DNA from: an uncultured Gammaproteobacteria bacterium
Lineage (GTDB): Bacteria > Patescibacteriota > Microgenomatia > UBA12405
DNA: 64,000 bases
NCBI GenBank assembly: GCA_964549165.1
Contig: CAZJUH010000001.1
Coordinates: 74,566 to 138,565 of the forward strand
Direction of reading: 5' to 3'
Part shown: piece by piece, positions 4,604 through 22,846 of the stretch
Layout of the letters: each line of letters begins with the position of its first letter
How positions within the stretch are numbered: the stretch's first letter is position 1
Translations under genes and position numbers: made by a program
Notes under the pieces: generated by a model
The model's database searches: none
What the model was told of the DNA's origin: nothing
Seen by the model: only the letters and a program-made list of their open reading frames with translations

Positions 4604-4717
4604 CTTTGGCGGCATTGGGGCCTGGGATTAGTCTGTCTCTATAACACCCATATTATTACTGTCTTATTTTATCAACCTTTTGTGGCTAAATGAGACAAAT
4701 GAGACAGTATAAAAAAC
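4604..4717 (+). repeat. copy A of a ~115-bp intergenic repeat (ctttggcgg..ggtctggga..ctgtctctataacac..gtcttatttt..cttttgtagctaaatgagacaaatgagacagtataaaaaa)
   Basis: near-identical 3' 45 bp and a similar 5' part shared with copies at 7817-7932 and 12869-12984, all in the same orientation; internal inverted GAGACA/TGTCTC hexamers. Confidence 0.7.
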
Positions 4718-4800
4718 TCCAAACATCTTTAGAACTTAATATCTCAAAAAACGCGCAATAAAAACTTTAATCTGTTTTTAGGCAAAAAATTATTAAAAAA

Positions 4801-5208
4801 TCAATCAAAGGGATTATTTATTAAATGTTCGAACGGCATCTGCTCAGGAATTATGCCGATTGATTTGCCATATTCTCGTGCCTGAATCAATTGTGGATCA
4901 TTATCCCCAAAATCAAAAACCCTGTCTTTAAATACAACAGTCATCCTGCCGTTTTTACATAAATGTGTGTAAAACCCATCCTTAATATCAGTTTTTGCTT
5001 GCTTAACATATCCGTCTTTTATGGAATCAGAAACTTCAACTTTATGAAAGGTCATTACCCTGTTCTCTTTTTCCAGTTTCTCAACATCTGTGTGTACTAT
5101 TCTAGCCATGGCCAAAATCGATTTATCTTGTAAACTCTCTTCAAGCACAACTCCTTGCCATAAATTTAATTGATTTTCATTTTTATCCATATTTATCATA
5201 AAAACCAT
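4801..5208 (-). CDS. hypothetical protein
   Basis: 135-aa ORF with no recognisable motifs. Confidence 0.35.
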   Translation of the reverse strand: MVFMINMDKNENQLNLWQGVVLEESLQDKSILAMARIVHTDVEKLEKENRVMTFHKVEVSDSIKDGYVKQAKTDIKDGFYTHLCKNGRMTVVFKDRVFDFGDNDPQLIQAREYGKSIGIIPEQMPFEHLINNPFD

Positions 5209-5311
5209 TAATTATGTGTATTTTAATTTCTATAACAAAAATTGTCAAATAAGATCATTTATTACAATACATATGGGCAATATTCTTCGTTATATTTGGT
5301 AATTAACTTAG

Positions 5312-5817
5312 TTAGATCATTTCGCAACCAAGGTGTTTGAACTTCATAATAATCATAATTACTCCAATCCTCGAGTGTTTTTTGGGGGGGGTAAAACCAT
5401 GTTTGACAGCTTGATCATATAAAGGAGTACCTGGGAAAGGAGTGTAAATGTGTGCTTTTACTTCATGGATTGAACCTTTTTTCATGATTTTTTCACCAAA
5501 ATTCAACGTTCTTTTTATATTTTCTTCGGGAAAACCAGGATAACCAACAATAATGGTAAAACTACCGTGTATTTCAAAATTCTTTAACATCCTCGCCACC
5601 TTCAATACTTCTTTGGTTGTTACCCCTTTTTGAATAAATTTAAGCTCGTCTTCATTTCCAGATTCTGCTCCTATAAGAATTCTGGATAAACCGCTCTTCT
5701 TCAACAAAGAGAACTCTTCCTTTGTATATGACAACAAACTCTTTGGATGTGCCGATGCGGCCCAATTTATTTTCCAGTCTTTTTCGATTACATTTTGAGC
5801 AAATGCTAATACTCTTT
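5312..5817 (-). pseudogene. radical SAM (B12-binding class-like) gene remnant: N-terminally truncated at the IS boundary and frameshifted at a G8 homopolymer
   Basis: translation resembles the C-terminal half of B12-binding radical SAM enzymes (ILIGAESGNEDEL, IIVGYPGFPEE); the reading frame stays open up to a TGA abutting the IS end at 5818; the G8 run at ~5383-5390 is followed by a nonsense tail (IGVIMIIMKFKHLGCEMI). Confidence 0.55.
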
Positions 5818-5834
5818 GTCAAGTACCCCATTTG

Positions 5835-6692
5835 TTAAACCACTTTTTCTATAAGGTTTAGTTTTTGAAGATATTGTTGTTTGAATTGGATCGGAGACAT
5901 CTTGAGACTAGTGTGGATTCTGGTTTGGTTGTAGTAATTAATTGTTTGGTGAATAGCTTCGACAAATTCACCAACTGAATTAAACCTATCAAACTCTAAA
6001 CCAAGATCAGTTTTGAAATTATCATAGAAAGATTCCTGATAACCATTTTCCCAAGGTGAAGCTTTTTTACTCATGGATACTGTTACACCCAGATCAGTGA
6101 TTAGTTTGGTGTAATCATGGCAATTGTACTCTACTCCCTGATCTGAATGAACAAATTTAGGCAAGATTCCTTTGTTTTCAAAAGCATCAAAAAAGGCATT
6201 GATAACTAAATCTTTGGTATGTCTGGCTGATAAGCTCCAACCAACAATTTCTCTAGTGAAAAGATCCATGAAAGTACAAAGGTAAATAAATCTGGAATTA
6301 AATCTAAGATAAGTAAAATCTGACACCCAGGTGACATTGGGAACAATGGGAAAACTACCTTTAATTTGATTGGTAAAAGCAGCTTCCGTCCTTCTTTCAT
6401 CTCTTCGTTTTCGCCATTTTCTTTTTCTCTTATACGGTTTGATATTAAATTGTTTCATCACCCGACGGATTCTTTTCTTGTTAACGCCTAAGGCAATAGC
6501 GATTCTTCTGTGACCATAACTGGGGTTTGATTCCAAAACAGACAGGATTTGTGCTTTTAATTGTTCGTCTTGATTTGGTTTAGAAGAACAGTAAAAGTAA
6601 ACATCACGAGAAATTCCTAAAAGTTTAATTATTTGGTTTTTACTGGCTTTAATCAAACTGTTATCTAGTTTGATTTTAATGACATCAAACAA
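5835..6692 (-). CDS. IS3-family transposase OrfB (DDE integrase catalytic domain)
   Basis: HRRIAIAL.. integrase-core region, YTYLRFN, HSDQGVEY motifs typical of IS3/IS150 OrfB. Confidence 0.85.
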   Translation of the reverse strand: MFDVIKIKLDNSLIKASKNQIIKLLGISRDVYFYCSSKPNQDEQLKAQILSVLESNPSYGHRRIAIALGVNKKRIRRVMKQFNIKPYKRKRKWRKRRDERRTEAAFTNQIKGSFPIVPNVTWVSDFTYLRFNSRFIYLCTFMDLFTREIVGWSLSARHTKDLVINAFFDAFENKGILPKFVHSDQGVEYNCHDYTKLITDLGVTVSMSKKASPWENGYQESFYDNFKTDLGLEFDRFNSVGEFVEAIHQTINYYNQTRIHTSLKMSPIQFKQQYLQKLNLIEKVV

Positions 6693-6711
6693 CCATTGAT
6701 AGAAAAGTGAT

Positions 6712-6960
6712 CTACTTTTTCTTTTTTTTTAATTTTTCCAATTCGATAGTTAAAGCCCCAACAATTTCTTTAAGTATTTGGTTTTCTTTCTTAATCTTAC
6801 CCAGTTCTAGGACAGAAATTGTGTCAACTACACCCACCTTTAACCAAGCATAAATAGTTCGATCAGAAACTCCGTATTGTGTAGCCACTTCCTTAACAGT
6901 TTTGCCAGATTTAACTTTGTCTAAGATTTCTTTTTTAACTTCAGAATTAATAGTACTCAT
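6712..6960 (-). CDS. IS3-family transposase OrfA (HTH)
   Basis: 82-aa HTH protein (VKEVATQYGVSDRTIYAWLK) with leucine-zipper-like C-terminus ending in KKKKK over an AAAAAAAG slippery site (programmed -1 frameshift site). Confidence 0.75.
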   Translation of the reverse strand: MSTINSEVKKEILDKVKSGKTVKEVATQYGVSDRTIYAWLKVGVVDTISVLELGKIKKENQILKEIVGALTIELEKLKKKKK

Positions 6961-7002
6961 TTAGTACCTCCTTAAATTATTAAACCACATGCACTAACTG
7001 GT

Positions 7003-7701
7003 TTAGTTTAAGGGGTACCGGTCAACATCCTCAGAGAATTCAAATACATTTGTCCACATTAATTCAACAATTTTATCTATTTCTTGATTATTTATTCTGG
7101 GTAGTAAGAGAGTTACTTTACCGTTATTGTTTTGATATTTTGCATGTCCCAATGACAAACCTCCATGTTCAATCTTTGATCTAACTTCATTAAAAAAATC
7201 ATGCCATTTCCGATCCTCAATGAGCATTTTTGCAAACTCTTTATCTCTTAAACTTCCGCTTTCCATTAGTTGTTTAATACCTTGATCAAATTTGTTTATT
7301 TTTTGAAAAAAGAATCCGATATCTAAACCATATCTTTTTACTAAATATTGTAGAGCTTTGAGTGCAATTTCTCCTTTGATGAAGAAATCTTTAAAATACT
7401 GGTTAACTTGTCGGTCTATCGATTCTTTAACTTCTACAATTTCTCCATTGTTCTGGAATCCCACTATCGTACCCGTCTCTATCTGTTCTCTATGATGCAA
7501 AATCAAAGAAACGAGTTGGTTTTTACTTTCTTGGCAATCATCTAGATTTTCAAGTATGGGGTTGTATAAATCATCAAATTCATTCCTTTCCAAGTCGTTT
7601 TTTACGATTAGGTCTCTTAATTTCATCACGCCAAACATCATCCTTGCATTAAAAGGGTCGTTTGAACCAGTATCTTTATACTTAATTAATGTACCTTGCA
7701 T
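7003..7701 (-). CDS. hypothetical protein (last 5 codons and stop lie inside the IS left inverted repeat)
   Basis: 232-aa ORF with no recognisable motifs; 3' end overlaps the IS terminus. Confidence 0.35.
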   Translation of the reverse strand: MQGTLIKYKDTGSNDPFNARMMFGVMKLRDLIVKNDLERNEFDDLYNPILENLDDCQESKNQLVSLILHHREQIETGTIVGFQNNGEIVEVKESIDRQVNQYFKDFFIKGEIALKALQYLVKRYGLDIGFFFQKINKFDQGIKQLMESGSLRDKEFAKMLIEDRKWHDFFNEVRSKIEHGGLSLGHAKYQNNNGKVTLLLPRINNQEIDKIVELMWTNVFEFSEDVDRYPLN

Positions 7702-7816
7702 TCCTTATTTTACCCTATTACAGGCTATTTCAGTGAAAAATGTTGTATTTGACGAATATATGGCAACAGCTTAGGACAATACTTGACTAGCAAGTGGGTC
7801 GCATAGAACTTTGACC

Positions 7817-7932
7817 CTTTGGCGGAACATTAAGGTCTGGAACCTTTCTGTCCTTATAACACTGTCCCCAACCTCTGTCTTATTTTACCAGTCTTTTGTA
7901 GCTAAATGAGACAAACGAGACAGTATAAAAAA
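7817..7932 (+). repeat. copy B of the ~115-bp intergenic repeat
   Basis: aligns with copies A and C; lies in the divergent promoter region between 7701 and 8036. Confidence 0.7.
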
Positions 7933-8035
7933 GGAATATTTCCACAGATTAGGAAATAATACATATATATTGTATATCTATATATTACAGGATGTTGTTC
8001 CAAAATAGGCACCTATTTGAAAAATACGTAAAATA

Positions 8036-9334
8036 GTGGTAAAACATAGTACTATGAAATCAAAAATCCTGTTCTTGTGGCCACCAGAGATACCATACGA
8101 CTTGACCCTACATTATCACTATACTGACTTTGGCGAAATTGCGGCTTATTTCATGAACCAACCAGATAAATATGAGGTCGATATTTTTGATGGTGGGGTA
8201 TTGGCTTACCTCAAAAAAGAGTACGTTAGCTACCTTCTCAAGGAATATGATTATTTGGTTATTCTAACCTACATTCAAAATACCCATTCTGCCGTTAGGG
8301 CAGCTGATCTATGTAAAAAGATATCTCCCAAAACTAAAATTATTGCCTATGGTTCATCGCCATATTACGTTCCTCAATTTTTTGAGAAGGAACCGTTCGA
8401 TGGTTATGTTTGGGATGGAGATTGGGAACTGGCAATTGAGAGTTTCGTAAAATACCATAATGGAGAAATTACCAAAGAAGAAACAAAAGGTATCTGTATT
8501 GATGAAGGCAAAATCAAAAACAAAGGCGAGTGGCTTGATCCCGCCAAATGGGCTTTTCCTCCATTGGGTTTACTTCCTTTGGATGACTACGACCGAGTCT
8601 TATCACAAAAGAAAACTATCAAGAAATTCGGTGACCGACAAATTAGTGTTACTGTTTCTCGAGGTTGTCCATTCGCCTGTCCATTTTGTAAAGCTTCGGT
8701 AATGTATGGTCGTCAAGAAAAACGCCGACCAGTTGATCAATTTATTAAATATTTGGAGGATAACATCGACAGATTTGACGTTCTTCAAATGTTTGCTCCA
8801 AACTTTACTCTTGATCAAGAATGGACAAAAGAATTTTGCCAAAAAATAATAGATAAAAAGTTAAAACTTGACTGGCGTTGCACCACCAGAGCACAATTAA
8901 TTACCCCAGAACTTGCTGAAATAATGGCAAAAGCAGGATGTAAATCTATTGGTATTGGCGTTGAATCTCTTCAGGATGATATTCAGAAAAACATCGGCAA
9001 AGTTCTTAATACTCATCAAATTTTGGACACATTTAGAACCCTAAAAAAAGTTGGTATTATTCCCAAAGGTTACATCATGCTGGGACTACCCGGTCAGACA
9101 CGTGAAGATGTTTATAAAACAATTCGCATGATTACAGAAGCTGGCGGAGAGGTTCGTCCAAGTTCATATTCGCCATACCAGAATCTAAATCGTCAATCGA
9201 CCTTAAAAGAAATTGCGGCTATGAATCGTTACACCTACGATATTAATGCCGTTAAAGGCTTAAATCCAGTTGAGTTCTTAAAAATTGTCTTCGAAAGAGA
9301 TCTTGAAGATCATCAACATCATTATGAAGATTAA
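8036..9334 (+). CDS. B12-binding domain radical SAM protein
   Basis: N-terminal Rossmann-like cobalamin-binding-type region, then the CPFACPFC (CxxxCxxC) radical SAM cluster motif. Confidence 0.8.
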   Translation: MVKHSTMKSKILFLWPPEIPYDLTLHYHYTDFGEIAAYFMNQPDKYEVDIFDGGVLAYLKKEYVSYLLKEYDYLVILTYIQNTHSAVRAADLCKKISPKTKIIAYGSSPYYVPQFFEKEPFDGYVWDGDWELAIESFVKYHNGEITKEETKGICIDEGKIKNKGEWLDPAKWAFPPLGLLPLDDYDRVLSQKKTIKKFGDRQISVTVSRGCPFACPFCKASVMYGRQEKRRPVDQFIKYLEDNIDRFDVLQMFAPNFTLDQEWTKEFCQKIIDKKLKLDWRCTTRAQLITPELAEIMAKAGCKSIGIGVESLQDDIQKNIGKVLNTHQILDTFRTLKKVGIIPKGYIMLGLPGQTREDVYKTIRMITEAGGEVRPSSYSPYQNLNRQSTLKEIAAMNRYTYDINAVKGLNPVEFLKIVFERDLEDHQHHYED

Positions 9335-10403
9335 ATTAACTGAAGAAGAGATTAATAAACTAAAGGTAAACCAAGGTGTCCGACCGCACCGAGTTAAATT
9401 TCAATTGACGAATGCTTGCAATGCAAGATGTAAGCATTGTAATTTGTACTTAATAAAGCCGGATGTGTTGTCCAAAGAAGTTGTTCTAAAAACTCTTGAA
9501 GATCTATCAGGACTAGGTGGTAAAGATGTCGATTTTACCGGAGGTGAGCCGACGACTCATCCAAATTTTGTCGAATTCATAAAGACTGCAACAGATTACG
9601 GACTCAAGGTAAAAGCAAATACCAACGGATTCTTGTTGACAGAAAAGTTAGCTGAGGGAATGATAAAAGCTGGTTTAAAAGAACTAGCAATATCTGTTGA
9701 CTCCCATAGCGCCGAGGAACATGACAGGCGCCGATGTTTACCCGGTGGTTGGCAGAAAGCCATTGACGGCATCAATTTTATCGATAAGTATCGAAATAAA
9801 TATAAGACAAGTACTAAGGTGATTCTTTATTCCATACTCTCTAATAAAAATTACAACCACGCTCCAGAAATAATTGATCTGAAAAAGATTGCTAATTTCG
9901 ACGAGATAAATTTTATCCCCATCAAAGACATTGAAAATAAAGAGGATTTTTTAACAAAAGAACAAATTCAAGATTATTACAAAAATATTAAACAGATATT
10001 GGTTGAAAAATACAATGAGTACAAATTCACTGGTATTTTTAGAACAATAGACGATCCGTTTGGTGTTATGGCCTCAAAAACCGAAGATAAATCAACCTCG
10101 GCCAAATACACCGAAGAAATTTACAAGAATCTTCCCTGTTATATCACTAATTTTTATTCATATATTATTTCTGACGGCTCAGTTGTTCAATGTTGTGTGG
10201 CGCCCCACCATCTTCGACCTGAATTTATCATGGGAAACATCAATCAACAAAGCTTTAAAGAAATTTGGAACTCTGACCGATATAATCAACTAAGACAAAC
10301 ACTTCTCAAACCAAATTTTGAAATTTGTAAATGTTGTAGTGGGCACCACACCGCTTTTAATCTTGATGTTCACCAGCAAATAAATGACTATGAAAAGGGT
10401 TGA
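9324..10403 (+). CDS. radical SAM protein with C-terminal SPASM/twitch-like Cys-rich domain
   Basis: CNARCKHC (CxxxCxxC) near the N-terminus; C-terminal CCVAPHH...CKCCSGHH cysteine cluster; start taken at ATG 9324 (MKIKLTEEE), overlapping the upstream gene. Confidence 0.8.
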   Translation: MKIKLTEEEINKLKVNQGVRPHRVKFQLTNACNARCKHCNLYLIKPDVLSKEVVLKTLEDLSGLGGKDVDFTGGEPTTHPNFVEFIKTATDYGLKVKANTNGFLLTEKLAEGMIKAGLKELAISVDSHSAEEHDRRRCLPGGWQKAIDGINFIDKYRNKYKTSTKVILYSILSNKNYNHAPEIIDLKKIANFDEINFIPIKDIENKEDFLTKEQIQDYYKNIKQILVEKYNEYKFTGIFRTIDDPFGVMASKTEDKSTSAKYTEEIYKNLPCYITNFYSYIISDGSVVQCCVAPHHLRPEFIMGNINQQSFKEIWNSDRYNQLRQTLLKPNFEICKCCSGHHTAFNLDVHQQINDYEKG

Positions 10404-11100
10404 AGATCTACTCATACGAGGTGAATTAACACCATTAAGGCGGGGATTAGTTAAGGAAACTTACCGTCACAAAGATGTTGTTATTGGACTGGTTCGGGTT
10501 GATAAATTGGATGTTCATGATCGTGACCCTCTAATGTTGCGTGATTCTGTCAGAAAATACGTTGACGGATTACATAGTGCTGGAGTACCAATAGTTGATG
10601 TTGTGGAAGTGGAACTTCAAGGATCTAATTTAGTGATGGTAACCAAGTTTATGCCTCAGTTCTTAGATTTAGCCATGAAGGCCAGTGAGGTAGATTTTGT
10701 CGCTGGGAGTAACCGAATGCTTTCAGATATTGCTAAAACTAAAGATACTCAAGTTGGGATTGATCCAACCCCCAAAAACTTTGCCTATAATCACGATCAA
10801 ATTTTATATGCAGATTTCTTTTATCCCATTACTCGGGAATATTCCGAGTGGAAAAAGAGTCGAATGACTTTAGATACTCCAAGACGTCGTTGGGTTCACT
10901 TTGCTCAAGATTACTTTTATTACCCCAGTGTCTATACTCATGCGATTTGTGATTTAGCCGATATCGGTATCCAAACTCGTGACGAGACGTTTCAACTAGT
11001 CACTGATTTTTGTCAGCATCGAGGTTTTGGTATTGACCTTAAATCTTCATTAGATTATTATCAGGAAACAAGGATTCGACATGGTCAACAAAAACACTAG
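10384..11100 (+). CDS. hypothetical protein with protein-kinase-like/aminoglycoside-phosphotransferase-like catalytic loop
   Basis: GIDPTPKNFAYNHDQILYADF resembles the H/DxxxxN...DF catalytic/DFG region of APH/choline-kinase-fold enzymes; weak. Confidence 0.35.
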   Translation: MTMKRVEDLLIRGELTPLRRGLVKETYRHKDVVIGLVRVDKLDVHDRDPLMLRDSVRKYVDGLHSAGVPIVDVVEVELQGSNLVMVTKFMPQFLDLAMKASEVDFVAGSNRMLSDIAKTKDTQVGIDPTPKNFAYNHDQILYADFFYPITREYSEWKKSRMTLDTPRRRWVHFAQDYFYYPSVYTHAICDLADIGIQTRDETFQLVTDFCQHRGFGIDLKSSLDYYQETRIRHGQQKH

Positions 11101-12241
11101 AACCCTATTCAAAAATACCACTGCTATTATCGGAGATGGAATGGAAGTGACTAATAATATAGATCTCTTAGTCATTGGTGACACTATTACTCAAATCGAT
11201 AAGGATGTCGATACATCTAATACTGAAATTTTAGATGGCGAACAATTTGTTTTATGTCCGTCATTTGTGAATGCACACACACATCTTGACGATAGTACTA
11301 TTACTGATATTGGCATTGGCCAAAGTCTTGAAGAGTTAGTATTTCCAAATGGTGTCAGAGAAAAAATTACTTCAGTTTCAAGGGACGATTTCAAATCTTC
11401 TATTAAAGATACTGTTCACAGAATAATTCTCGGTGGGACAGGAGTAATTTGCAGTTTTTGCGAAAGTGGAACTGAAGGTGTTGAGAAGGTTAAAGAATCA
11501 ATCAATCCTGATTTAAAGTCAATCTTGGTTGGTCGATTCAAAAGCAGGTTCCCGTACGAATCTAATGTTGAGAATCTACTAAAAATTGCCGATGGATTTG
11601 CTCCGGGTTTTATTAAGGATATCTCTGAAGAAGATTTGAAAAAAATATCTCAAAGGATTTTAACTGTTGGTGGTTTTATCGCAATGCACAGCCTTGAGTC
11701 AAAAGATCTTCCAGTAGAAAACTTTTATAAGACAGTCGATTATCTGAAACCAAAATTTTTGGTTCACCTAGTTCAAGCTAGTCAAAAAGAGATTAGCTAT
11801 CTTGCCGACAAAGATATCGGAGTTGTCTGTTGTCCCCGCGGTAATTCAATTACCGGAGTTGGCATTCCCCCAATTCTCCCGCTTTTAGAAAAGGGAATAA
11901 CCGTGGCTCTCGGGACTGATAATATTTTTCTTAATTCTCCTGATATGTTTCGGGAAATGGAGTTTACCTCAAGACTATTAAGAGGCATCACTCAAAATGC
12001 ATCAGCTACTGACTCAAAGACAATTCTTAAAATGGCAACAATAAATGGGGCCAAGATTCTCGGAATAGAGGGTAGCTATGGATCACTTTCTGTCGGTAAA
12101 AAAGCCAATATCATTGTATTCTCTAAGAAGTCAAGCAGTTTCATTCGATCTGCCGACATTGTTTCAACAATAGTTCATCGAGCTGGGGTAGACGATATTC
12201 ATGAGGTATATCTAAACGGGGATGTTTACAGCTCCAGGTGA
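11081..12241 (+). CDS. amidohydrolase-family metal-dependent hydrolase
   Basis: VNAHTHLDDS HxH metal-binding motif near the N-terminus, TIM-barrel amidohydrolase-like length and later His/Asp positions (HSLES, GTDN). Confidence 0.65.
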   Translation: MVNKNTRTLFKNTTAIIGDGMEVTNNIDLLVIGDTITQIDKDVDTSNTEILDGEQFVLCPSFVNAHTHLDDSTITDIGIGQSLEELVFPNGVREKITSVSRDDFKSSIKDTVHRIILGGTGVICSFCESGTEGVEKVKESINPDLKSILVGRFKSRFPYESNVENLLKIADGFAPGFIKDISEEDLKKISQRILTVGGFIAMHSLESKDLPVENFYKTVDYLKPKFLVHLVQASQKEISYLADKDIGVVCCPRGNSITGVGIPPILPLLEKGITVALGTDNIFLNSPDMFREMEFTSRLLRGITQNASATDSKTILKMATINGAKILGIEGSYGSLSVGKKANIIVFSKKSSSFIRSADIVSTIVHRAGVDDIHEVYLNGDVYSSR

Positions 12242-12813
12242 GATGTGTCGTTCCAAAATTTTACTTCAGCTTTGTCACCTTCAATTTCGAGTAGAGATAA
12301 AGCTCCACCAGTGGTGTGTTCCAATTTCATTCCAAAAAGAGAGTTAAGCCGACCAATGAAATGACCATGAGTGATGACTAATATATTTTCAAAACCTGAT
12401 TTTTCAATTAGTTCTTTAAATTCGGCGGCTCGACGTTTTACATCATTCTCACTCTCACCACCTTTACATTTGAAATCATCAGGATCAAGGCCACTACTAT
12501 CACGAACCGCATAATATTCCGTTGAAGGTTGGCCTTCAAACTCCAATCTGTTTATTTCTCGGACTAAGTCAGTAACAATCACTTTTTTTGGGTCAACTCT
12601 GAAGCCACCCTTAAAAATTTGATCCATGGTTTGCAATGTTCGAAAGAGACTACTACAATAAATCGCATCAATCTTGATACCATCTCTTACTAGTCTCTCT
12701 CCTAACTTTTTGGCATCCACCATTCCTTTGTCAGATAACCCGGTATAAGAAAAAGCGATGTATCCTTCGGCGTTACTAATAGACTCTCCGTGACGTGTAA
12801 GATATATTCTCAT
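12226..12813 (-). CDS. histidine phosphatase family protein (phosphoglycerate-mutase-like)
   Basis: IYLTRHGES RHG motif, later ITHGHFI histidine; convergent 16-bp overlap with the amidohydrolase gene. Confidence 0.75.
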   Translation of the reverse strand: MRIYLTRHGESISNAEGYIAFSYTGLSDKGMVDAKKLGERLVRDGIKIDAIYCSSLFRTLQTMDQIFKGGFRVDPKKVIVTDLVREINRLEFEGQPSTEYYAVRDSSGLDPDDFKCKGGESENDVKRRAAEFKELIEKSGFENILVITHGHFIGRLNSLFGMKLEHTTGGALSLLEIEGDKAEVKFWNDTSHLEL

Positions 12814-12868
12814 GAGTGATTATAACTTAATATAAAAAAACAATAAAATTGCTCGAACAATACACGAA

Positions 12869-12984
12869 GTGCGGAGCATGTGGGTCTGGGATGAAACTGT
12901 CTCTATAACACCCACATTGTCATTGTCTTATTTTTTATCAGCCTTTTGTAGCTAAATGAGACAAATGAGACACTATAAAAAAGG
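12869..12984 (+). repeat. copy C of the ~115-bp intergenic repeat
   Basis: aligns with copies A and B; immediately 3' of the minus-strand gene ending at 12986. Confidence 0.7.
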
Positions 12985-12985
12985 A

Positions 12986-13897
12986 CTACAACAGTTTATT
13001 GATTTCTAAGTCCCACCCATCTTTATGAATTAGTCGATCTTTACAAAGATTAGCATTGATTATCTCAGCTTTGGTTTTTTGAGACAACTCTTCCCAATTA
13101 TTTTCCAAAATATAGGTGGCATTTCCATAAAATGGGCTTTCAAGTACAAATAGATTTTTATTGGTAAAACCCATAATAATATAACCATGGAAACCTGCAT
13201 TTCCGACGGCAGTAAAATCAGGATGGTGTTTATTTATAAGTTCAAGACGATGTTCTAGATAAGAGCGATTTCCTTTTGGGGTCTCTTCAATAATCTTTTC
13301 AACCTCTTTTTTAAGAGATGACCATGGCATTTGTCCTTGTGGCAATATTGTCCAATTCAATCGTCTTGTTGGTGAAGCTACATCACCCATTTTTGGATCT
13401 AAAATCTGACATTCACCAAATATTTCCAAAAATAAATTTACTACATGTGTTACTTTGTCTTCATCACTAACATCAATTGTTGGACTAACAATTAGTTTTA
13501 TCCCATTTTGAATTGTTGATATTGATAATTCCACACTTGGTGGAACAATAAAAGTTCTCGGATATCTTTTATAAGGAACTTCAACAAATTTACTACGTTC
13601 AACCTGATAAGGACCGTGCCACTCTTGCCATGTCCATTCAGTAACACGCGATACTTCTTCCATTGGTTGATCTTTATGGATTAAATACTTACCCTCTGCA
13701 TTAAAGCTACTGACAGGACCGAATTGTGCTGACGGTAAAACTGTTTCTCCATTCTCAATTTTAGATGTAAAGCCTATTTTGCTGCTTAATTTTGAGTTTT
13801 CTGCGTCAACTGATACTCCAATAATAATATTTTTATATTTTGATAAAACTCCTTTAAAGGGTTTTAATGTTCTGATTCTTCTTTTTTTGATTAACAT
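12986..13897 (-). CDS. hypothetical protein, 303 aa, co-transcribed downstream of the Cas2/VapD-like gene
   Basis: no recognisable motifs; 12-bp spacing to the upstream gene. Confidence 0.4.
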   Translation of the reverse strand: MLIKKRRIRTLKPFKGVLSKYKNIIIGVSVDAENSKLSSKIGFTSKIENGETVLPSAQFGPVSSFNAEGKYLIHKDQPMEEVSRVTEWTWQEWHGPYQVERSKFVEVPYKRYPRTFIVPPSVELSISTIQNGIKLIVSPTIDVSDEDKVTHVVNLFLEIFGECQILDPKMGDVASPTRRLNWTILPQGQMPWSSLKKEVEKIIEETPKGNRSYLEHRLELINKHHPDFTAVGNAGFHGYIIMGFTNKNLFVLESPFYGNATYILENNWEELSQKTKAEIINANLCKDRLIHKDGWDLEINKLL

Positions 13898-13909
13898 AGT
13901 TTTAATAAT

Positions 13910-14176
13910 TTATAATCTGGCGTTTAACCAGTCATGGGCACCAGTGATCATCCATGCGGAATAGCTATTTTTATACAATTGAGCAGTGAAGATATAATCA
14001 TTTGAATCGACCACTGTTCTTATTTGATCACTAATAGTATTGAGATCATAAGCGGTATCCAGAAACCACAAATTTTGTAATGGATGAAGAGTTTGACCTA
14101 AACTCATAATTTTTTTATAGAGAGCATCGTAATTTTGCCCTTCTTTCCTTAGATCGTATGTTATTATATAGACCAT
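13910..14176 (-). CDS. Cas2/VapD-like small protein (ferredoxin-like-fold endoribonuclease family)
   Basis: 88 aa; MVYIITYDL N-terminus (Cas2 MLVLVxYDI/VapD MYAIAFDL pattern with the conserved Asp), central LHPLQNLWFL (cf. Cas2 RVQYSVFEC), C-terminal IRTVVDSNDYIFTAQL (cf. Cas2 IVDSEDSIRVYxL); motif-level resemblance only. Confidence 0.45.
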   Translation of the reverse strand: MVYIITYDLRKEGQNYDALYKKIMSLGQTLHPLQNLWFLDTAYDLNTISDQIRTVVDSNDYIFTAQLYKNSYSAWMITGAHDWLNARL

Positions 14177-14287
14177 ATTGACTTTAATTTATAATGATTT
14201 ATACTTAATTAATAAGGCTTAAGCCTACATCTTTAAGCATATACTTACAATTTTAAGCTTTTTATTAAAAAAATCAAGGGGTAATTT

Positions 14288-14656
14288 ATGATAAATAAAA
14301 TAGATTTAGGTTTTAGGATTGCTGAAAAAAGAAAAAGATTGGAAATGTCCCAATCACAATTAGGGGAAATGTTAGGTATTAGTCATGCGGCTGTATCTGA
14401 TATTGAAAGAGGGATAACTAATCTTAATGTTGAAGGAATATCTAAAATTGCTGATATTCTTAAAACAACATTTGAAGATCTTACTTTTATAAATGATTAC
14501 AGTTCTGCCACACAATCATTTAATTCATCGAATGGGATAAGTGTTTCTGGATATAGATTAGGAAAATACGCTAACAATAATGATATGGAAGAAGCAGATA
14601 AAAAAATTAAAGATAGATTGGCACAATTAAGAAAGGAGAAAAATGATTCACAGTAA
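14288..14656 (+). CDS. XRE-family HTH transcriptional regulator
   Basis: SQSQLGEMLGISHAAVSDIERG HTH_3 motif. Confidence 0.8.
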   Translation: MINKIDLGFRIAEKRKRLEMSQSQLGEMLGISHAAVSDIERGITNLNVEGISKIADILKTTFEDLTFINDYSSATQSFNSSNGISVSGYRLGKYANNNDMEEADKKIKDRLAQLRKEKNDSQ

Positions 14657-15149
14657 AGCTGCAAGAGAAAAAGCAGATAATATTATTGAAATGTATCATA
14701 TTGATGAAGCACCGGTCGATATTTTTGGAATTGCAGAAAAACTAGGTTTTGTGGTAGATAAAATTGAGTTACCCAATGAAATACCTGCAAAAATTGAGGC
14801 TCATGAAGATATTAAGGTCATTTTCATTAATAGTAAACATCCTTTAACAAAACAAAGATTCTCCGTTGGTCATGAACTTGGTCATTATCTGAGTGGGCAT
14901 GAAAATTTCAATGTCGATATTAGATCAATGGCAGATCCGGATAGAAAATATCTTAACTCTCAATATCAACAAGAATACGAAGCTGATGATTTTGCTGCAG
15001 AAATTTTAATGCCAAAATCAATTCTAAAAAAAGATTCCATGGAAAATAAACTTAGTCTAGCTGATTTGGTAAAGAAATACGAGGTAAGTGAACAAGCAAT
15101 GACCATTCAACTTGTTAATCTAAAATTACCCTTTAACAGTGAAAAGTAG
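14643..15149 (+). CDS. ImmA/IrrE-family metallopeptidase
   Basis: HELGHYLSGHE HEXXH motif in an ImmA-sized protein immediately downstream of, and overlapping, an XRE regulator gene. Confidence 0.8.
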   Translation: MIHSKAAREKADNIIEMYHIDEAPVDIFGIAEKLGFVVDKIELPNEIPAKIEAHEDIKVIFINSKHPLTKQRFSVGHELGHYLSGHENFNVDIRSMADPDRKYLNSQYQQEYEADDFAAEILMPKSILKKDSMENKLSLADLVKKYEVSEQAMTIQLVNLKLPFNSEK

Positions 15150-15151
15150 TG

Positions 15152-16234
15152 TCAGGATACAATTTTTACTAAATCATCCTCACTTTCGTAGCCCCTGATT
15201 CTACCTGTTAGAATTCCAAGTCTCTGACTGATTCCGTCACTCATTAATCGCCAGTTTGTATCTTCCAATGTTTTTTTAATCAATTTTTTTAAGTTATTTT
15301 GACTATCGTAGTCACTTTTTGAAGTATCTGATTCTTGTACAGAAAATGGAATTATTACATCTCTAGTAATTTCTGGTTTATCAAAGGAAAGTTCAATATA
15401 TTTTGCTTTTTCTAAGGTTTCTTTTAAAAGTTTTTGTAAATCAAAGACTTTTATTTTTTTTAAGGCTTTTGCTTTCTTATAACGTGGGTCAGCTTCCTTT
15501 GTTTTTCTTTCCTCTTCGTGTTTAGAATATAATTCTGACTGTATTTGATTTGAAACATACTCTTCCCCTTTTTCTTTACTTAAGCAAAATACTCCCCTAA
15601 AAGTTTCTAATAATTGTTTATCTTTTTCTTGTTTCCTTTTATATTCATCACTCTCAGCTTTCATATCCCAAACATCCTTGTTTTTATAACCACATTTGCA
15701 TGTTTCGATGGTAGTAATTACTTCACCTTTTCGTTGGCTATCTTCTTTTAATTCTTGATTACATTTAGGGCATGTGGGTCTTTTTGGTTTAAATTCTTCA
15801 CCATTATCAAAAACACCTCTTCCTTTTTTACAATTAGGACATCTGAAAAAGAATAATATGTTTGATGATTTTTCAGAAAGGTTATATAAGGTTTTGTCTT
15901 CAAACTCCATTGCCCAATTACAATCTGGGCAAAATATTGAACTTGGCTCTTTTGCATTGTCATATATTTCTTGTTCTATTCGATCCTTATCCATCCATTC
16001 TCTTATTGTTTTTTCCTTGTTTCGATATTCCTCACCTTTTTTATAATAGAGAGATATCTCTCCTAATCCTTCTACAAATCCTTTTGGATCTGCTAATTTA
16101 AAATCATTGATTTCTTCTCTATCTTTTTTAATCTTCTTTTTCCATATTTCAATAAAATCAAGGCAATTTTTAATAGTTAATAGATCATAAAGATCTTCAT
16201 AGTATTGTTTCTCTTTTATATAATTCATTAACAA
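15152..16234 (-). CDS. hypothetical protein with multiple CxxC zinc-ribbon motifs
   Basis: CPDCNW...CPNCKK...CPKCNQ...CKCGYK cysteine pairs; charged low-complexity regions; start overlaps the upstream gene by 7 bp. Confidence 0.4.
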   Translation of the reverse strand: MLMNYIKEKQYYEDLYDLLTIKNCLDFIEIWKKKIKKDREEINDFKLADPKGFVEGLGEISLYYKKGEEYRNKEKTIREWMDKDRIEQEIYDNAKEPSSIFCPDCNWAMEFEDKTLYNLSEKSSNILFFFRCPNCKKGRGVFDNGEEFKPKRPTCPKCNQELKEDSQRKGEVITTIETCKCGYKNKDVWDMKAESDEYKRKQEKDKQLLETFRGVFCLSKEKGEEYVSNQIQSELYSKHEEERKTKEADPRYKKAKALKKIKVFDLQKLLKETLEKAKYIELSFDKPEITRDVIIPFSVQESDTSKSDYDSQNNLKKLIKKTLEDTNWRLMSDGISQRLGILTGRIRGYESEDDLVKIVS

Positions 16235-16833
16235 TTAGCCTCTTCTGAATCTATTTCTTTTTGCGATTTAACAAATTTACCAGTGTCCATATCAAAACCT
16301 CTTACAAATTCAATTGAGTAGATACCGATACTATTAGCTGTTGAATCAACTGGTTGGTTTGATATCCTAGACAATTCATCAAATTTCTTATCATCAGTAG
16401 TAACCAAAACTGGTATCCAATTAATATAATTCCATTCTTTCTTTTTAACATCATAATGAGCTGGTAAAACCATAATATTATAAAACTGGTAAACATCATC
16501 CATCATTTTCATATATTCTTTTGATCTAAACAGATCATCAGTGGGAACAATATCTTTAGAATTCCAATATTCCTTTTTGAGTGGGAATCTTTTATTAAAA
16601 TTAATCTTAATAATAACCAACCCACTAACATAAATCGGGCCTTCTTTTAATTTAAGTAAATCTTTTCTTAATTTTTTAACTCTAGTTTGAAGAGATTTTA
16701 CTGTTGGATATATTTGAACTAGTATTTGAATATATCTTAAATTATCAGTTTTACCAACAAATATCACTCCCACATAAGCAGTATCTGGGAAATCCGGCTC
16801 TCGATAACAATACTTTTGGCTTTTCTTATCCAT
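16228..16833 (-). CDS. hypothetical protein, 201 aa
   Basis: ORF with no recognisable motifs; co-directional with, and between, the type IIG RM gene and the zinc-ribbon gene. Confidence 0.35.
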   Translation of the reverse strand: MDKKSQKYCYREPDFPDTAYVGVIFVGKTDNLRYIQILVQIYPTVKSLQTRVKKLRKDLLKLKEGPIYVSGLVIIKINFNKRFPLKKEYWNSKDIVPTDDLFRSKEYMKMMDDVYQFYNIMVLPAHYDVKKKEWNYINWIPVLVTTDDKKFDELSRISNQPVDSTANSIGIYSIEFVRGFDMDTGKFVKSQKEIDSEEANC

Positions 16834-17085
16834 GTTTTAACCAATATTAACATTTAAGGTAAAATTAAATTGAAATGAGTCCTTGGTTTAAAAAATGGTT
16901 ATGTAGAATAATTCTTTGGTATTCGGCCTTTTTTATAATTGCTGATATCTGGGGAGTGGATAATTTGAATCTGTTTATTATGGCCTTTTTTACTTTCTTT
17001 ATAATTGTCGTTCTCCGATTTGTAATAAGAATTTTAACAGAATTATTTAATCTCAGGCTAGAAATTTATCTACACAATTAAATTA

Positions 17086-19875
17086 TTAGGTATTTTCTAT
17101 AATTCCCTTTTCTTCTTCGTTTAATCCATACAATTTATAAACTTCTTTATCTATTTGTTTCTCTATTTCCGTAATTTTATTATTTAATTCAAAATATTTA
17201 TCTGAATTTTTAGAAATATTATTAACTTCTGTTTTAAAACTAATAATTTTATCGACTAGATTAATAATGTCCTTCTGTTGTTCTTTTTCTGCTTTATATA
17301 TTGGCACTTTTAATAAAGGACCTTTGTCTATTTGGAGCAAATCTCCTAATCTTTTTCCCTTATTTATCAACCAATAAAAAGCCAATTTTGAATTTAGCAA
17401 CCCAACTAAATATTTTAAGTTTATTCTATCGGTTTTAATAAAATTTAAAGCCCTTGATCCATAATACTCATTTTCAGTGTAGAAAAAACTTGGTAATGCT
17501 ACTCTTGCACCACCAATAATTTTACTTCCTTTTGTAAAAAACCGTTCATCTCTTTCTCGATGTAGGTAGTAATATGGTTTTGTTGGAGTTTTATATTTTA
17601 TTTTGGAATCTTTTAGCAAAGTTTCGTATTTTTTAAAATGGTTATGTAGTGATGGAAAATCTTCTATTGATTTTCCATTAAAATTTTTAGCGGATAAATA
17701 AATGATATATTTATTTGTTTGCGCTCCATTATATTTTTGTGCTGAAGTATAAAACGATTTAATATATTCACGTTCTTGTAATCCAAAATCTTTTAATTCA
17801 TTGATAATAAAACATTTATCAGGTGCACCAACAATACCTTGTGCTACTTCTTTTTCTTCCAACTGGAAATTTGCCTTTGATAGTATTTTTTCTAAAATCG
17901 AATTATTTTCCTTGTTTGAGAATATTATGTTTTGACCTAATAGTTTATTTTTTTCTATTTGAATTTTTATTTTGCTCTGTTGAATTTTGTTAATTATTTC
18001 TAGTTCAGTAGAACTACTGTTTTCAATTTTTAGATATTCAACATTGTATTTTTCTCGTGGTTTACATTTTTTAAAAACAAAAATCATCGTTTGTATCCCA
18101 GCTTCATTAAATACTTTGTAATCTCCGAAATCTATAAAGCTTAATATTTCTCCCTCATTTAATATTTTGTCTCTAAAAATACTAGCACCTGCATTGGAAA
18201 TCCAATTATTTGGTGCAATAAAACTTAAATATCCACCGTCACGAAGAAGATCAATTGCTTTACAGGCAAACAGTGTCCATAAATCCATTTTTCCTTGATA
18301 ATATGGGCTATCGTGTAAATCATTAAATGCCGCTTTGTTTACAAATTCTTTAATATATGGTGGATTTCCGACAATTACGTCGAATCCTGGATTTTCCCGC
18401 TTAAAAATATATTCAAATTCTTTTTTATATTCAAAAGCCTTATCAGTTGTTTTTTTATCTTCAATTAAAGAATTTCCTACACAAATGTTCTTGCTTATTA
18501 TTGGTAATTTGAAGTTTGGGACGACTGATTGTAGTAAAAGATTAAGTCGAGCAATTTCAATAGCTTGTTCGTCTAGATCAACTCCATAAATGTTTTCTTG
18601 TAATATTCGATATTTTCTAATTGCGGCAATATCTTTATCATTAATATCTTGATTATTTTCTTTTCTTAAATATTGATCTAAATATTCAAAACTATTTATT
18701 AAAAAAGAGCCACTACCACATGCAGGATCAAGAATTTTAATCGATTGTTTCTCGTTCAAATTATTCATTTCTGATAATTTTTTCCCAATTGTATTACTGA
18801 CTATATAATCAACAATGTAACTTGGTGTGTAATATATTCCCTGTTTTTTTCTTTTTCCCTCATCTTTTTTCCCTTTTTGAAGGTATCCCAAATATTGTTC
18901 ATAGACTTTTCCTAATACATCGGCATTTATTGCATCAAATCGATAACTAACCTGTTGTTTTTCATTGCGGTAAAGCTCAGGAATAATTTGTTTGAAAGGA
19001 TTACCCTCAGTATCGAGCTTTTCGCAATAATGTTCATGGAACAAATTACTGTTATAAGTTTGGTCAAATTTTCTAAAGAGTGGAATTAATAGTTCAATAA
19101 AATTATATGGTTTAAATCCATTGCTTTGCCATCTTTGAAATGTTTGCCATAAAAATTTATCTTCTATTCCTTTATCTTCAATCACACGAATAAAAATCAA
19201 TCTATCTAAAATTCTTTGGACAGATTCATTTAACAATCTCAAATCAACACCTGTATTCCATTGTTTTAGATTATTAGTTAATGTGTCTCGCCATCTGACT
19301 AGATCAGCTGCCAGTAATTCATTTACTTTTATTCTTTTTGAGCCAATACCAAAACTTGATAAAGTAGTATCAAGTAAATTTTGGTTAAATGATTCTTTTG
19401 AAAGAAGCCATAGGGTATCAAATTTATCTAAATATTCTGTATATTTAAAATCAAGCCTCTCTTTTGGTCGACCGATATTTTCTTCTGAATTAAAAAGTTT
19501 TAATCCTTCAAAGTCAGTTAATACAACCCATGGAACACCCATATTCCAACCGTATTCAACCGTTTGATTAGCCCATTGTTCTTTGTCTAGATTTTCCGAC
19601 ATTGATTTTGCTTCTAATAAAAACTGTGTTAGATGATTGACTCTAAAAGCATAATCAACTCGACCACAAATAGATGGATCTTCTTCAACAATATCTTCAT
19701 GAATATCCCAACCAAGAGCTTCAAACATTGGAAGAATAAAGTTTTTTCTTGTGTTTGCTTCGTTATAACTTTTCTTTTCTAAGGGTGTTAATCTCTTATA
19801 TTTTTCGATTAATTCAGAAATTTTTATCTTTGCTTCGTCTTTAGACATTTGTTTTTGATTATCTATTGGTGACAT
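17086..19875 (-). CDS. type IIG restriction-modification enzyme (MmeI/Eco57I-like: N-terminal PD-(D/E)xK nuclease + gamma-class N6-adenine methyltransferase + C-terminal specificity region)
   Basis: N-terminal GRVDYAFRV...LLEAKSM (HsdR-N/Mrr-like D..EAK nuclease motif), motif I ILDPACGSGSFL, motif IV VGNPPYIKE; 929 aa. Confidence 0.75.
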   Translation of the reverse strand: MSPIDNQKQMSKDEAKIKISELIEKYKRLTPLEKKSYNEANTRKNFILPMFEALGWDIHEDIVEEDPSICGRVDYAFRVNHLTQFLLEAKSMSENLDKEQWANQTVEYGWNMGVPWVVLTDFEGLKLFNSEENIGRPKERLDFKYTEYLDKFDTLWLLSKESFNQNLLDTTLSSFGIGSKRIKVNELLAADLVRWRDTLTNNLKQWNTGVDLRLLNESVQRILDRLIFIRVIEDKGIEDKFLWQTFQRWQSNGFKPYNFIELLIPLFRKFDQTYNSNLFHEHYCEKLDTEGNPFKQIIPELYRNEKQQVSYRFDAINADVLGKVYEQYLGYLQKGKKDEGKRKKQGIYYTPSYIVDYIVSNTIGKKLSEMNNLNEKQSIKILDPACGSGSFLINSFEYLDQYLRKENNQDINDKDIAAIRKYRILQENIYGVDLDEQAIEIARLNLLLQSVVPNFKLPIISKNICVGNSLIEDKKTTDKAFEYKKEFEYIFKRENPGFDVIVGNPPYIKEFVNKAAFNDLHDSPYYQGKMDLWTLFACKAIDLLRDGGYLSFIAPNNWISNAGASIFRDKILNEGEILSFIDFGDYKVFNEAGIQTMIFVFKKCKPREKYNVEYLKIENSSSTELEIINKIQQSKIKIQIEKNKLLGQNIIFSNKENNSILEKILSKANFQLEEKEVAQGIVGAPDKCFIINELKDFGLQEREYIKSFYTSAQKYNGAQTNKYIIYLSAKNFNGKSIEDFPSLHNHFKKYETLLKDSKIKYKTPTKPYYYLHRERDERFFTKGSKIIGGARVALPSFFYTENEYYGSRALNFIKTDRINLKYLVGLLNSKLAFYWLINKGKRLGDLLQIDKGPLLKVPIYKAEKEQQKDIINLVDKIISFKTEVNNISKNSDKYFELNNKITEIEKQIDKEVYKLYGLNEEEKGIIENT

Positions 19876-20090
19876 TTATGCTTTGATTATATCTCATAGG
19901 AGAATTAAAGCGGTTGGCTAAAATAAAAAAATCAAAAGAATTACTATAATTACTATAGATGCACAAAAATCGAGACCCAAACAAGCGGGACTCTCAACTG
20001 CCGTAACTCTTATATATCGGTCATAAGCATCTTACATAAGGACAAAATTTATTTATTTTTTGCGGTTTAGACCGCTGTCCTAATATAATT

Positions 20091-21446: not shown

Positions 21447-21951
21447 GTGCTTAAAAAAGAACTCTATAATTCAAATAGCTTGTCAGCAAGCGGATATTAG
21501 TCGCGCCACCTATTATCGGTGGCGCGATGAAGATAAAAACTTTAAAAAAGAAACTGACCAAGCCAAAAAAGAAGGATTTGAAGTGATTAATGATTTAGCA
21601 GAAACAGGCTTAATAAAAGCAATTAAAGATGGTAACGTCACGGCTATTTTTTATCGACTTAATCATTGTCACCCAGATTATTCTGACAAGAGGTTGTATT
21701 TGTCTAACTCTGACCAAAAACAATTGATTGATGATATTAGTACAAGCAATATAAAAAATATATTGGAAATTCTAATGGAAAAACTTATAAAAGGAGAAAT
21801 TTCAAAATCTGCTGCTAACCAAGTCATATTAATGATTAATAAAATTTATCCACAAGAGGTTAATTCGTTACGTCAGCAGGAAATAAGGAAAACATTAAAT
21901 GAGATGTCAGATCTAATTAATGAGTTAAGTCCAAATTCAAATAGAAAATAG
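21421..21951 (+). CDS. HTH-containing phage-like protein (terminase-small-subunit/transposase-HTH-like N-terminus)
   Basis: IACQQADISRATYYRWRDEDKNF HTH pattern; overlaps the upstream methyltransferase gene. Confidence 0.35.
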   Translation: MKSKKEVIKCLKKNSIIQIACQQADISRATYYRWRDEDKNFKKETDQAKKEGFEVINDLAETGLIKAIKDGNVTAIFYRLNHCHPDYSDKRLYLSNSDQKQLIDDISTSNIKNILEILMEKLIKGEISKSAANQVILMINKIYPQEVNSLRQQEIRKTLNEMSDLINELSPNSNRK

Positions 21952-21967
21952 TAAATTAACTAATCTA

Positions 21968-22189
21968 CTATTCAAAAATATCTGAAAGACTTACTTTCAA
22001 AGCCTTGGCTATTTTTCCTAAAATTTCTAATGATGGAGTGTTCCTCCCTTGTTCGACATATCCAATATAAACTCGGCTAGCTCCGACTTTTTCAGCTAGA
22101 TCTTCTTGAGTCATATTAGCTTCATGTCTAAACTTTCTTATTTTTTGACACATTTTTTTGGTCAACTTGGAGTTTTTTCTCATTCCCAA
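21968..22189 (-). CDS. XRE-family HTH transcriptional regulator (small)
   Basis: MTQEDLAEKVGASRVYIGYVEQGRNTPSLEIL HTH_3 motif. Confidence 0.75.
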   Translation of the reverse strand: MGMRKNSKLTKKMCQKIRKFRHEANMTQEDLAEKVGASRVYIGYVEQGRNTPSLEILGKIAKALKVSLSDIFE

Positions 22190-22308
22190 GGCTATTGTGA
22201 AATTAGTATTTACTCCACTAAGCCAAACTTAGCAAATAGGCACAACATAGCCTTGACTTTCTGCTAATCGACAGTTAGCATTGTGATAATTAACAGTTAA
22301 TAAAAAAA

Positions 22309-22785: not shown

Positions 22786-22805
22786 ATAAAGGAATTATTT
22801 TAAAA

Positions 22806-22833: not shown

Positions 22834-22846
22834 ATATCATTTAGAT

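Follow-up and report, generated by a model that had tools for sequence, protein, structure and literature searches.

Why does one accessory region hold three same-orientation copies of a non-coding repeat of about 115 bp, and what is the repeat? The question is raised by a stretch of 64,000 nucleotides of contig CAZJUH010000001.1 (assembly GCA_964549165.1; "the window" below denotes this whole stretch), in which an original prediction had placed the copies at 4604–4717, 7817–7932 and 12869–12984. Here the repeat is called element E, its window copies W1, W2 and W3 in that order, and the loci compared with them carry L-numbers. We propose, with a probability of about one half, that the repeats are diverged copies of E, and that E forms the end opposite the recombinase, and probably also the control region, in a family of phage-like elements of Patescibacteria that encode a large serine recombinase (LSR).

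Architecture and distribution of element E

Reading and aligning the three sites confirmed the copies and their shared + orientation (Table 1). The 3′ 32-mer GCTAAATGAGACAAATGAGACAGTATAAAAAA occurs three times in the window at 0–1 mismatch, as against no occurrence in 100 shuffles; the 3′ part is thus near-identical and the 5′ part conserved though diverged, as predicted, and identity over ~120 nt amounts to 74% for W1–W2, 78% for W1–W3 and 74% for W2–W3. The gene contexts were also described correctly as a convergent gap, a divergent promoter region and the 3′ flank of a gene; W3 abuts the stop codon of an open reading frame (ORF) on the − strand (12986–13897). All copies lie within 8.4 kb, and searches of the whole window for repeats, boxes, generic tandem boxes and the M module described below revealed neither a fourth copy, in the other 55 kb, nor any half-copy or pair of boxes elsewhere in the 64 kb.

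Across the loci compared, E measures 115–190 nt and contains boxes of 9 nt. It opens with the M module, (T)GGC[GT]GAGCA-n4-GGTCTRGAACC, which is sometimes repeated or preceded by a motif termed M0 (GCAAGTGGGTCGC), and continues with a lineage-specific middle (..GTCC[CT]TATAAC.. in the window's subfamily), an inverted box U, the tandem boxes A1 and A2 (AAATGAGAC AAATGAGACA) and a spacer, [GC]TATAAAAAGG. A closing inverted box D follows in 61 of 113 loci, starting 13–14 or 20–22 nt past A2, and in the window's subfamily ~40 more conserved nt come after it. The M core is near-palindromic (GGTCTAGAACC; ACCTGGT..ACCAGGT in L242); weak GTTC../GACC.. arms opposite GGTCTRGAACC are present in some loci only, and their centre drifts by ±3 nt.

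All three window copies end at the same point, where D starts in their closest full-length relatives: AAGGA is followed by GTGTCTCA in L011, by ATATTT in W2 and by CTACAA in W3. The dyad of GAGACA/TGTCTC hexamers noted originally holds in part. Its well-conserved form is an inner one, in which U (TGTCTTATTT) pairs with the first or second AAATGAGACA box across a loop of ~18–30 nt in every copy (11–22 nt in full-length hairpins), whereas the outer CTGTCTC/GAGACAG pair is present in W1 and W3 and missing from W2, which reads CTGTCC. Neither an intrinsic terminator nor a sigma-70 promoter was predicted inside any of the three copies.

Further copies, which the original prediction had suggested seeking in other genomes, were found with the 19-mer AAATGAGACAAAYGAGACA as probe, each species being represented by one genome. 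It occurs in at least 120 genome loci, nearly all in Patescibacteria. A minority of the matches are chance or unrelated ones; some of these lie inside coding sequence, and others belong to a different multi-copy repeat of two Dehalococcoidia genomes or to tandem GAGAC arrays of metagenome-assembled genomes (MAGs) of Acidobacteria/Terriglobia (L056, L060, L067, L096, L097, L073 and L107 as one group), the architecture of E being absent from both. The remaining loci come from MAGs of many classes of Patescibacteria, or candidate phyla radiation (CPR), or from records with generic labels and CPR-type flanks. Several TPA_asm MAGs (L001, L005, L011, L013, L024 and others) are titled "uncultured Gammaproteobacteria" yet carry Patescibacteria-type copies; such mislabelled-looking records include one "Neisseria sp." and one "Oligoflexia", some have CPR-type neighbour genes, and their organism labels look unreliable.

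The exact GAG-type 19-mer is invariant in more than 100 species, in a set of loci collected by that 19-mer, and sequence-specific recognition must therefore act besides the pairing discussed below. A block of ~125 bp is 100% identical in L026, L057 and a contig of the IMG/VR database although the flanks are unrelated, which indicates that E is a discrete unit. Rfam 15 covariance models gave tRNAs as their only matches in the window and 29 loci, and no family overlapped E there even at an E-value of ≤10. The ends of the IS3 element in the window are unrelated to E. GenBank phages and PLSDB plasmids gave no match, and a literature search on the E sequence and on CPR non-coding elements found no paper with the sequence and nothing relevant. 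Element E is apparently an undescribed non-coding element.

Short, intergenic and multi-copy in the window, E could pass for a selfish repeat of the miniature inverted-repeat transposable element (MITE) or repetitive extragenic palindromic (REP) kind, or for an old functionless local duplication, readings that the original prediction had allowed for. Like REP sequences, bacterial interspersed mosaic elements (BIMEs) and Correia repeats, it is a hairpin-forming sequence between convergent or divergent genes. We nevertheless consider this origin very improbable. The ends of E (GGCGGAGCA... and ...TATAAAAAAGG, the latter ...GTTACTC in full-length relatives) are not inverted copies of one another, so that terminal inverted repeats are lacking, and no target-site duplication was found in the flanks of W1–W3, L101 or L109. 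The copies are not dispersed: outside the window there is usually one E per 8-kb locus, and about 2 of the 120 listed loci hold two. REP/BIME and Correia repeats are species- or genus-specific and number tens to hundreds of copies, whereas the core of E is low-copy and identical across many, even distant, Patescibacteria classes; the label "lineage-specific" given in the original prediction is wrong. REP sequences proper are 20–40-nt palindromes with a conserved head tetranucleotide and a RAYT transposase; E is longer and usually single, and no HUH or Y1 gene was seen among the neighbours scanned. Nor did the array arise by recent duplication at this locus, because W2 is nearer to the copy in L109, another MAG (92% identity), than to W1 and W3 (74%).

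Association with a large serine recombinase

To find recurrent neighbours, ORFs within 3.5 kb of E were clustered. An LSR gene stands within this distance in 13 genome loci, in all 13 on the strand of E; its stop codon falls in or at M in six loci, and its start lies 92–1470 nt downstream in another arrangement seen in six. In IMG/VR, the LSR loci that carry the module have it on the LSR strand in 8/8 cases. Genes for a ParB-methylase, a TerS-like helix–turn–helix (HTH) protein and a Zn-ribbon protein, the last of which matches the excisionase-type HTH_17 domain weakly, also recur near E. On the converging side the adjoining genes are diverse, and none is shared in common. In the family the order is E, Zn-ribbon/HTH gene, ParB-methylase, TerS and then LSR, as in L241, with E at the LSR-distal end. 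The Zn-ribbon/HTH gene starts 50–75 nt past the module in L022, L046, L241, L242 and L249/L250, and in viral contigs E occupies the divergent intergenic region directly upstream of it; no module precedes one homologue, that in L301.

The rebuilt IMG/VR contig 3300020195_001307 carries E, two unknown genes, ParB-methylase, methylase, TerS, TerL, more genes and LSR on one strand, with ~13 kb from E to LSR, and its left part recurs in truncated form 9117 bp away. The window follows the same order, W3 to LSR spanning 10.4 kb. The E-bearing IMG/VR contigs also hold homologues of the window's 360-aa protein, ImmA and TerS-like protein, and their ParB-methylases and LSRs are 60–68% and 46–54% identical, respectively, to those of the window. 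These gene orders in the window and the contigs place E at the LSR-distal end of the integrated element and, in circularly permuted order, next to the LSR gene.

A model is proposed in which the LSR gene of the free, circular element runs into the 5′ M module of E, and in which integration leaves E at the left end and LSR at the right end, on one strand. Because the LSR gene would run into M in the circular form, the M side would lie at the recombination junction and would be the foremost candidate for the half of the attachment (att) site that the element contributes; M may thus be part of that site. The module of tandem and inverted boxes would form a pairing-dependent hairpin just upstream of the first gene, often that for the Zn-ribbon protein with the excisionase-type HTH, and would probably control expression or excision. 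The window would then present three left ends piled head-to-tail at a variable hotspot downstream of a MacB/DUF5666 operon, an array that successive insertions may have built. W3 would still head a recognisable element ending in LSR, W2 a cargo cassette that has lost its LSR, and W1 a decayed segment struck by an insertion sequence (IS), while the near-identical 45-bp cores would offer portable homology for more rearrangement. If correct, this would account for the block-built accessory region of the window.

Several observations weigh against this model. The module lies within 10 kb in only 8 of 57 related LSR loci of viral contigs, and ~70% of the genome loci have no recognised mobile gene within 3.5 kb, E there adjoining ordinary genes such as those for alanyl-tRNA synthetase (AlaRS) or a CYTH protein. 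No pair of empty and occupied sites was recovered among relatives, which leaves the crossover point unproven; the window holds no reciprocal half sites with D only or M only and no E after its LSR gene, and DNA on the left side of M shows no conservation. Long direct repeats are not normally left behind by LSR att sites, and invariance of a 19-mer over more than 100 species exceeds the usual conservation of phage sites. A scan of viral contigs for M alone was discarded, since nearly all its matches were due to chance.

Known systems place these points in context. Like the window, composite staphylococcal cassette chromosome (SCC) islands, which depend on the Ccr LSRs, have head-to-tail blocks between same-orientation direct repeats, some of them without a recombinase of their own, at a single chromosomal hotspot. 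The SCC repeats, however, are ~15–28 bp long and occupy the 3′ end of rlmH, whereas E, which is non-coding and has no fixed host gene, also possesses a variable 5′ domain and a hairpin module, and action of an LSR on it is only putative. The attP and attL sites of serine-integrase prophages likewise lie opposite the integrase end and beside the integrase gene in circular order, and E stands at the element junction in the same way (in the window, in the IMG/VR contig and in the six loci with the LSR stop codon in or at M), its M core being near-palindromic. These att sites measure 40–50 bp, though, and leave no long repeats; the boxes and spacer of E fall outside any plausible att core, and neither a conserved left arm nor a central dinucleotide could be defined in E. 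The two classes of A2–D spacing (~14 and ~22 nt) were considered as attB and attP forms and rejected, because spacing tracks lineage and not context.

The arrangement of two direct and one inverted repeat around a spacer recalls the Flp target FRT and the res sites of serine resolvases, res being also similar in length to the ~115 bp of E. The spacer of E is 14–22 bp as against 8 bp in FRT, however, its boxes are of 9 nt and have many specificities, and no small resolvase or Flp-type enzyme is encoded nearby. Repeats at the ends of integrative elements and composite islands built by serine recombinases are already known; E differs in its superphylum-wide conservation, its triplet-coded hairpin architecture and its arrays, for which no match was found in Rfam or the papers searched. 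A large part of bacterial diversity belongs to the Patescibacteria, whose genomes are tiny and whose genetics is poorly understood. If the proposed role holds, E would serve in practice as a marker by which prophages and islands of these genomes can be located, and it would point the way to the attachment sites used by serine integrases, genome-engineering tools of which a large set is still untapped.

Pairing of the boxes

Sister modules with the layout of E carry other triplets (GGG, GGA, GGC, GGT, GCA, GTT, GTG, CTG, CGG and AAG), and the inverted boxes of each carry the complementary triplet. That the boxes of a module change together points to pairing, which appears from these comparisons to be under selection. 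In Staskawiczbacteria, ~950 nt of non-coding DNA contain 6–7 hairpin units of differing triplets, and at homologous array positions of two genomes the triplet differs and the partner box has changed too. In L241, A1 (GAG) and A2 (AAG) are answered by D1 (CTT) and D2 (CTC) in a nested two-box stem, and the close relatives L101, L109 and L118 trace a compensatory path U-A, U.G, C-G. The core of the D box shows 15 changes of C>T or A>G, which are G.U-compatible on the + strand, as against two of T>C or G>A. The ~950-nt arrays of L086 (6340–7290) and L002 (~2300–2900) open with an M-like domain followed by the hairpin units, with triplets GGG, GGA, GCA, CTG, AAG, GTT and GAG and with TTTTAGTCG[GT] before each unit; a gene for a small HNH endonuclease adjoins the array in L086.

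The hairpin may act in RNA or in extruded DNA. A structured small RNA was among the candidates named originally, and E could more broadly be a structured RNA made from the + strand, the product of a small RNA gene or else a 5′ leader or attenuator, that mobile elements carry or target. Covariation over at least ten triplet types, the G.U-compatible bias of the D box on the + strand only, the compensatory series and the arrays of hairpin units all agree with this, as does the setting of many loci, in which a terminator of the upstream gene often stands just before E begins with GCGG and a + strand gene begins 33–260 nt after it. As an attenuator, U with the tandem boxes and the tandem boxes with D would be alternative hairpins that set read-through into the next gene. 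We hold an RNA to be a minority possibility: folding energies are unremarkable (z-scores of only −0.8 to −2.6), and RNAalifold, which like the search for covariation had been recommended as a check, supports little beyond one hairpin. No Rfam family fits, as described above; subfamilies cannot be aligned with one another over the 5′ domain, no promoter was identified, the gene that follows is convergent with E in 57 of 106 loci, and the closing box is absent from the window copies.

Alternatively, the boxes could be a duplex operator array for an element-encoded protein, the Zn-ribbon/HTH_17 protein being the candidate, with a role in immunity or excision control and with the triplets as immunity specificities. 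Tandem boxes with a 9-nt period plus inverted copies resemble Xis or repressor sites, and the position of E in the divergent intergenic regions of viral contigs, the short distance to the Zn-ribbon/HTH gene in the loci listed above (with its weak HTH_17 match) and the invariant GAG-type sequence, suggestive of sequence-specific recognition, would suit an operator. The presence of 6–7 different triplets within 900 bp of the arrays, the asymmetric, wobble-type substitutions, the lack of such a gene near most E loci, W1 and W2 included, and the homologue L301 without a module make us regard it as rather unlikely.

A bolder idea, which we rate as speculative, is that E and its sister modules form a superphylum-wide, undescribed class coded by pairing, either a new structured RNA family of CPR phages or sites of recombination or insertion, specified by structure, at which accessory DNA is assembled. 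Just as speculatively, the fixed frame AAAT-NNN-ACA ... TGT-N′N′N′-ATTT would hold a free 3-nt "address" common to all arms. Such coding, if real, would be a new route by which streamlined symbiotic bacteria acquire and shuffle genes, and E could also be a new regulatory RNA or DNA structure. The TIGR arrays of Tas systems have alternating 8–12-nt repeats and 9-nt spacers in 36-nt units beside a Nop-domain gene (PMC12045711). The layout of E differs from that description, and no Nop-domain gene was seen.

Two further candidates were rejected. An ORF starting from the D box ([AG]TGTCTCAT) gave no conserved peptide, and a tRNA-like − strand (..GGTTCCAGACC..GCTCCGCCA) lacks a conserved T-arm and CCA and is not called by ARAGORN or Rfam. 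The stretch ..ATGAGACAC-TATA.. (window 4697–4716, with equivalents in many loci) presumably matches the SP6 promoter from −9 to −1 (GACACTATA) and resembles the K11 promoter (GGCACACTATAG), the variable triplet falling where T7-type promoters encode specificity; no gene for a single-subunit RNA polymerase was seen. A presumed likeness of U-NNN-A to anticodon loops was set aside together with the SP6/K11 likeness, since neither a polymerase nor a function to match was seen. Directly downstream of E in L026 (5940–6230), a T-box-like leader (..AACCAAGGTGGTACCACGGGAAG..) with its own promoter precedes an ORF, without an Rfam call at the gathering threshold.

Variation among relatives

Comparison with relatives revealed that both the presence of E and the segments beside it vary. 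To the left of the array, the RR-HK-MFP-ABC-MacB-DUF5666 operon is kept in relatives and its sequel differs in each. The window belongs to a genome of Microgenomates type; the nearest named homologues of its MacB are from Shapirobacteria, Roizmanbacteria and Gottesmanbacteria. In the 92%-identical relative L307, a degenerate M half follows right after the DUF5666 gene, at the position orthologous to W1. There, and also in L308 and L309, an M half (5815–5906) and a half with A box and spacer (6950–7012) flank one gene for a 342-aa protein whose function is not known, and a fragment of M plus U occurs upstream of the operon as well. The first 36 codons of the 342-aa gene recur in the window at 39190–39297, and other right-flank genes of the relatives are scattered over 26.8–43.9 kb of it. 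The contig L215 (80% protein identity) opens within a copy of E that has one A box and a D box, continues with the same five cassette genes and an LSR remnant, a C-terminal half with 67% identity to the LSR of the window, and ends with the left flank and M0 of an E copy, corresponding to window 7717–7820. The radical SAM cassette also occurs without E, in other contexts, in L216 and L217 (86% for both) and in L218–L220 (53–54%). Judged by these junctions, the region is a rearrangement hotspot with E or E halves at its joints.

The claim that the repeats partition the region into exchangeable cassettes therefore stands as far as E and its halves mark rearrangement junctions, E bounds LSR elements and its presence by the radical SAM cassette varies, while crossover at E itself is putative and integron-type machinery was not found. 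The latter bears on the possibility that E is a folded single-strand recombination site analogous to integron attC, with segments moving as circles that carry one E. attC sites are likewise ~60–140 bp long, imperfectly palindromic, with covarying arms, fixed frame motifs and strand polarity, and stand in the same orientation between blocks; the same-orientation copies that bound gene blocks, the structure kept while sequence varies, the contig L215 that starts and ends inside E and the halves around the 342-aa gene would all fit. Covariation of arms with polarity of one strand is nonetheless common to any hairpin element. Pfam scans of the ORFs in 29–28783 found the IS3 transposase and the LSR as the only transposase and recombinase and no integron integrase, and neither an HUH enzyme nor another plausible single-strand recombinase was seen; IntI, attI and Pc are missing, and the R′′ (RYYYAAC) and R′ (GTTRRRY) boxes are absent from the aligned copies. 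E blocks are multi-gene and of mixed orientation, the genes beside E follow no fixed orientation, and arrays of E are rare. The 9117-bp repeat of the IMG/VR contig, which had been considered as a circle, is a partial tandem duplication adjoining a complete prophage. We accordingly judge an attC-like site improbable.

Genes and segments of the window

Table 1. Positions of the E copies and of the genes and segments around them in the window.
Feature	Position	Strand	Remarks
W1	4604–4717	+	M ~4608–4627 (GGCGGCATTGGGGCCTGGGA); U 4660–4669; A1 4688–4696; A2 4697–4706
W1 spacer GTATAAAAAA	4707–4716	+	D box absent
W1–W2 segment	4718–7789	−	135-aa ORF; radical SAM fragment 5312–5737; IS3-type orfB 5835–6692, orfA 6712–6960
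232-aa ORF	7003–7701		no Pfam match; no similarity to the cassette's radical SAM protein
W2 with upstream extension	7790–7934	+	M0 (GCAAGTGGGTCGC) 7790–7802; M 7821–7844; U 7876–7885
W2 3′ part	A1 7904–7912; A2 (AAACGAGACA) 7913–7922; spacer 7923–7934	+	D box absent
W2–W3 cargo	8036–12813		radical SAM, radical SAM-SPASM, DUF6206-like, amidohydrolase (all +), histidine phosphatase (−)
W3	12869–12984	+	M 12871–12893; U 12924–12933; A1 12954–12962; A2 12963–12972
W3 spacer CTATAAAAAAGG	12973–12984	+	D box absent
Phage-like element, degraded	12985–~26500	+	starts right after W3; right boundary approximate; GC 30.4% (12985–24800)
303-aa and 88-aa ORFs	first in element after W3	−	ORFs
HTH_3/ImmA (Peptidase_M78) pair	14288–15149		Pfam
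360-aa protein	15152–16234	−	matches several loci from the Zn-ribbon/HTH family search; membership in that family not shown
Type IIG restriction-modification enzyme, 929 aa	17086–19875	−	Eco57I/MmeI-like; Pfam
ParB-methylase	20091–21446		Pfam
TerS-like	21421–21951		
DUF2726	22847–23380		Pfam
LSR	23415–24755	+	strand of the three copies; Resolvase, Recombinase, Zn_ribbon_recom domains
OLD-type nuclease	24773–26473	−	AAA_15 + Toprim; Pfam

The radical SAM segment had been described as GC-richer. It is so by comparison with the IS segment (4718–7816, 32.9%), but its 37.0% equals the 36–38% of the rest of the window; the AT-rich parts are the IS segment and the stretch after W3. The radical SAM fragment between W1 and W2 was considered as a duplicate of the cassette gene and rejected, the identity being 32% only. 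For the 303-aa protein beside W3, neither a homologue in the loci nor a Pfam or PHROG match was found. Three defence or regulation loci lie within the AT-rich element, namely the HTH_3/ImmA pair, the type IIG enzyme and the OLD-family nuclease.

A tRNA-Ser(gct) gene (26642–26727) stands just past the gene for the OLD nuclease, and this site is likely the right edge of the mobile element. The IS3-type element (5817–6960) adjoins the radical SAM fragment; a 59-nt copy of its end, 97% identical, stands alone at 27811–27869, which suggests that an IS mediated some rearrangement close to the right border of the accessory region. On the − strand, 31345–31442 contains 98 nt left over from the 3′ end of an LSR gene (84% identity to the LSR fragment of L215), a further mobile-element scar, outside the stretch that the three copies span. 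Two pairs of tRNA-Arg and tRNA-Ser genes (gcg/cga and ccg/gga), at 27349–27591 and 43238–44156, form diverged direct repeats.

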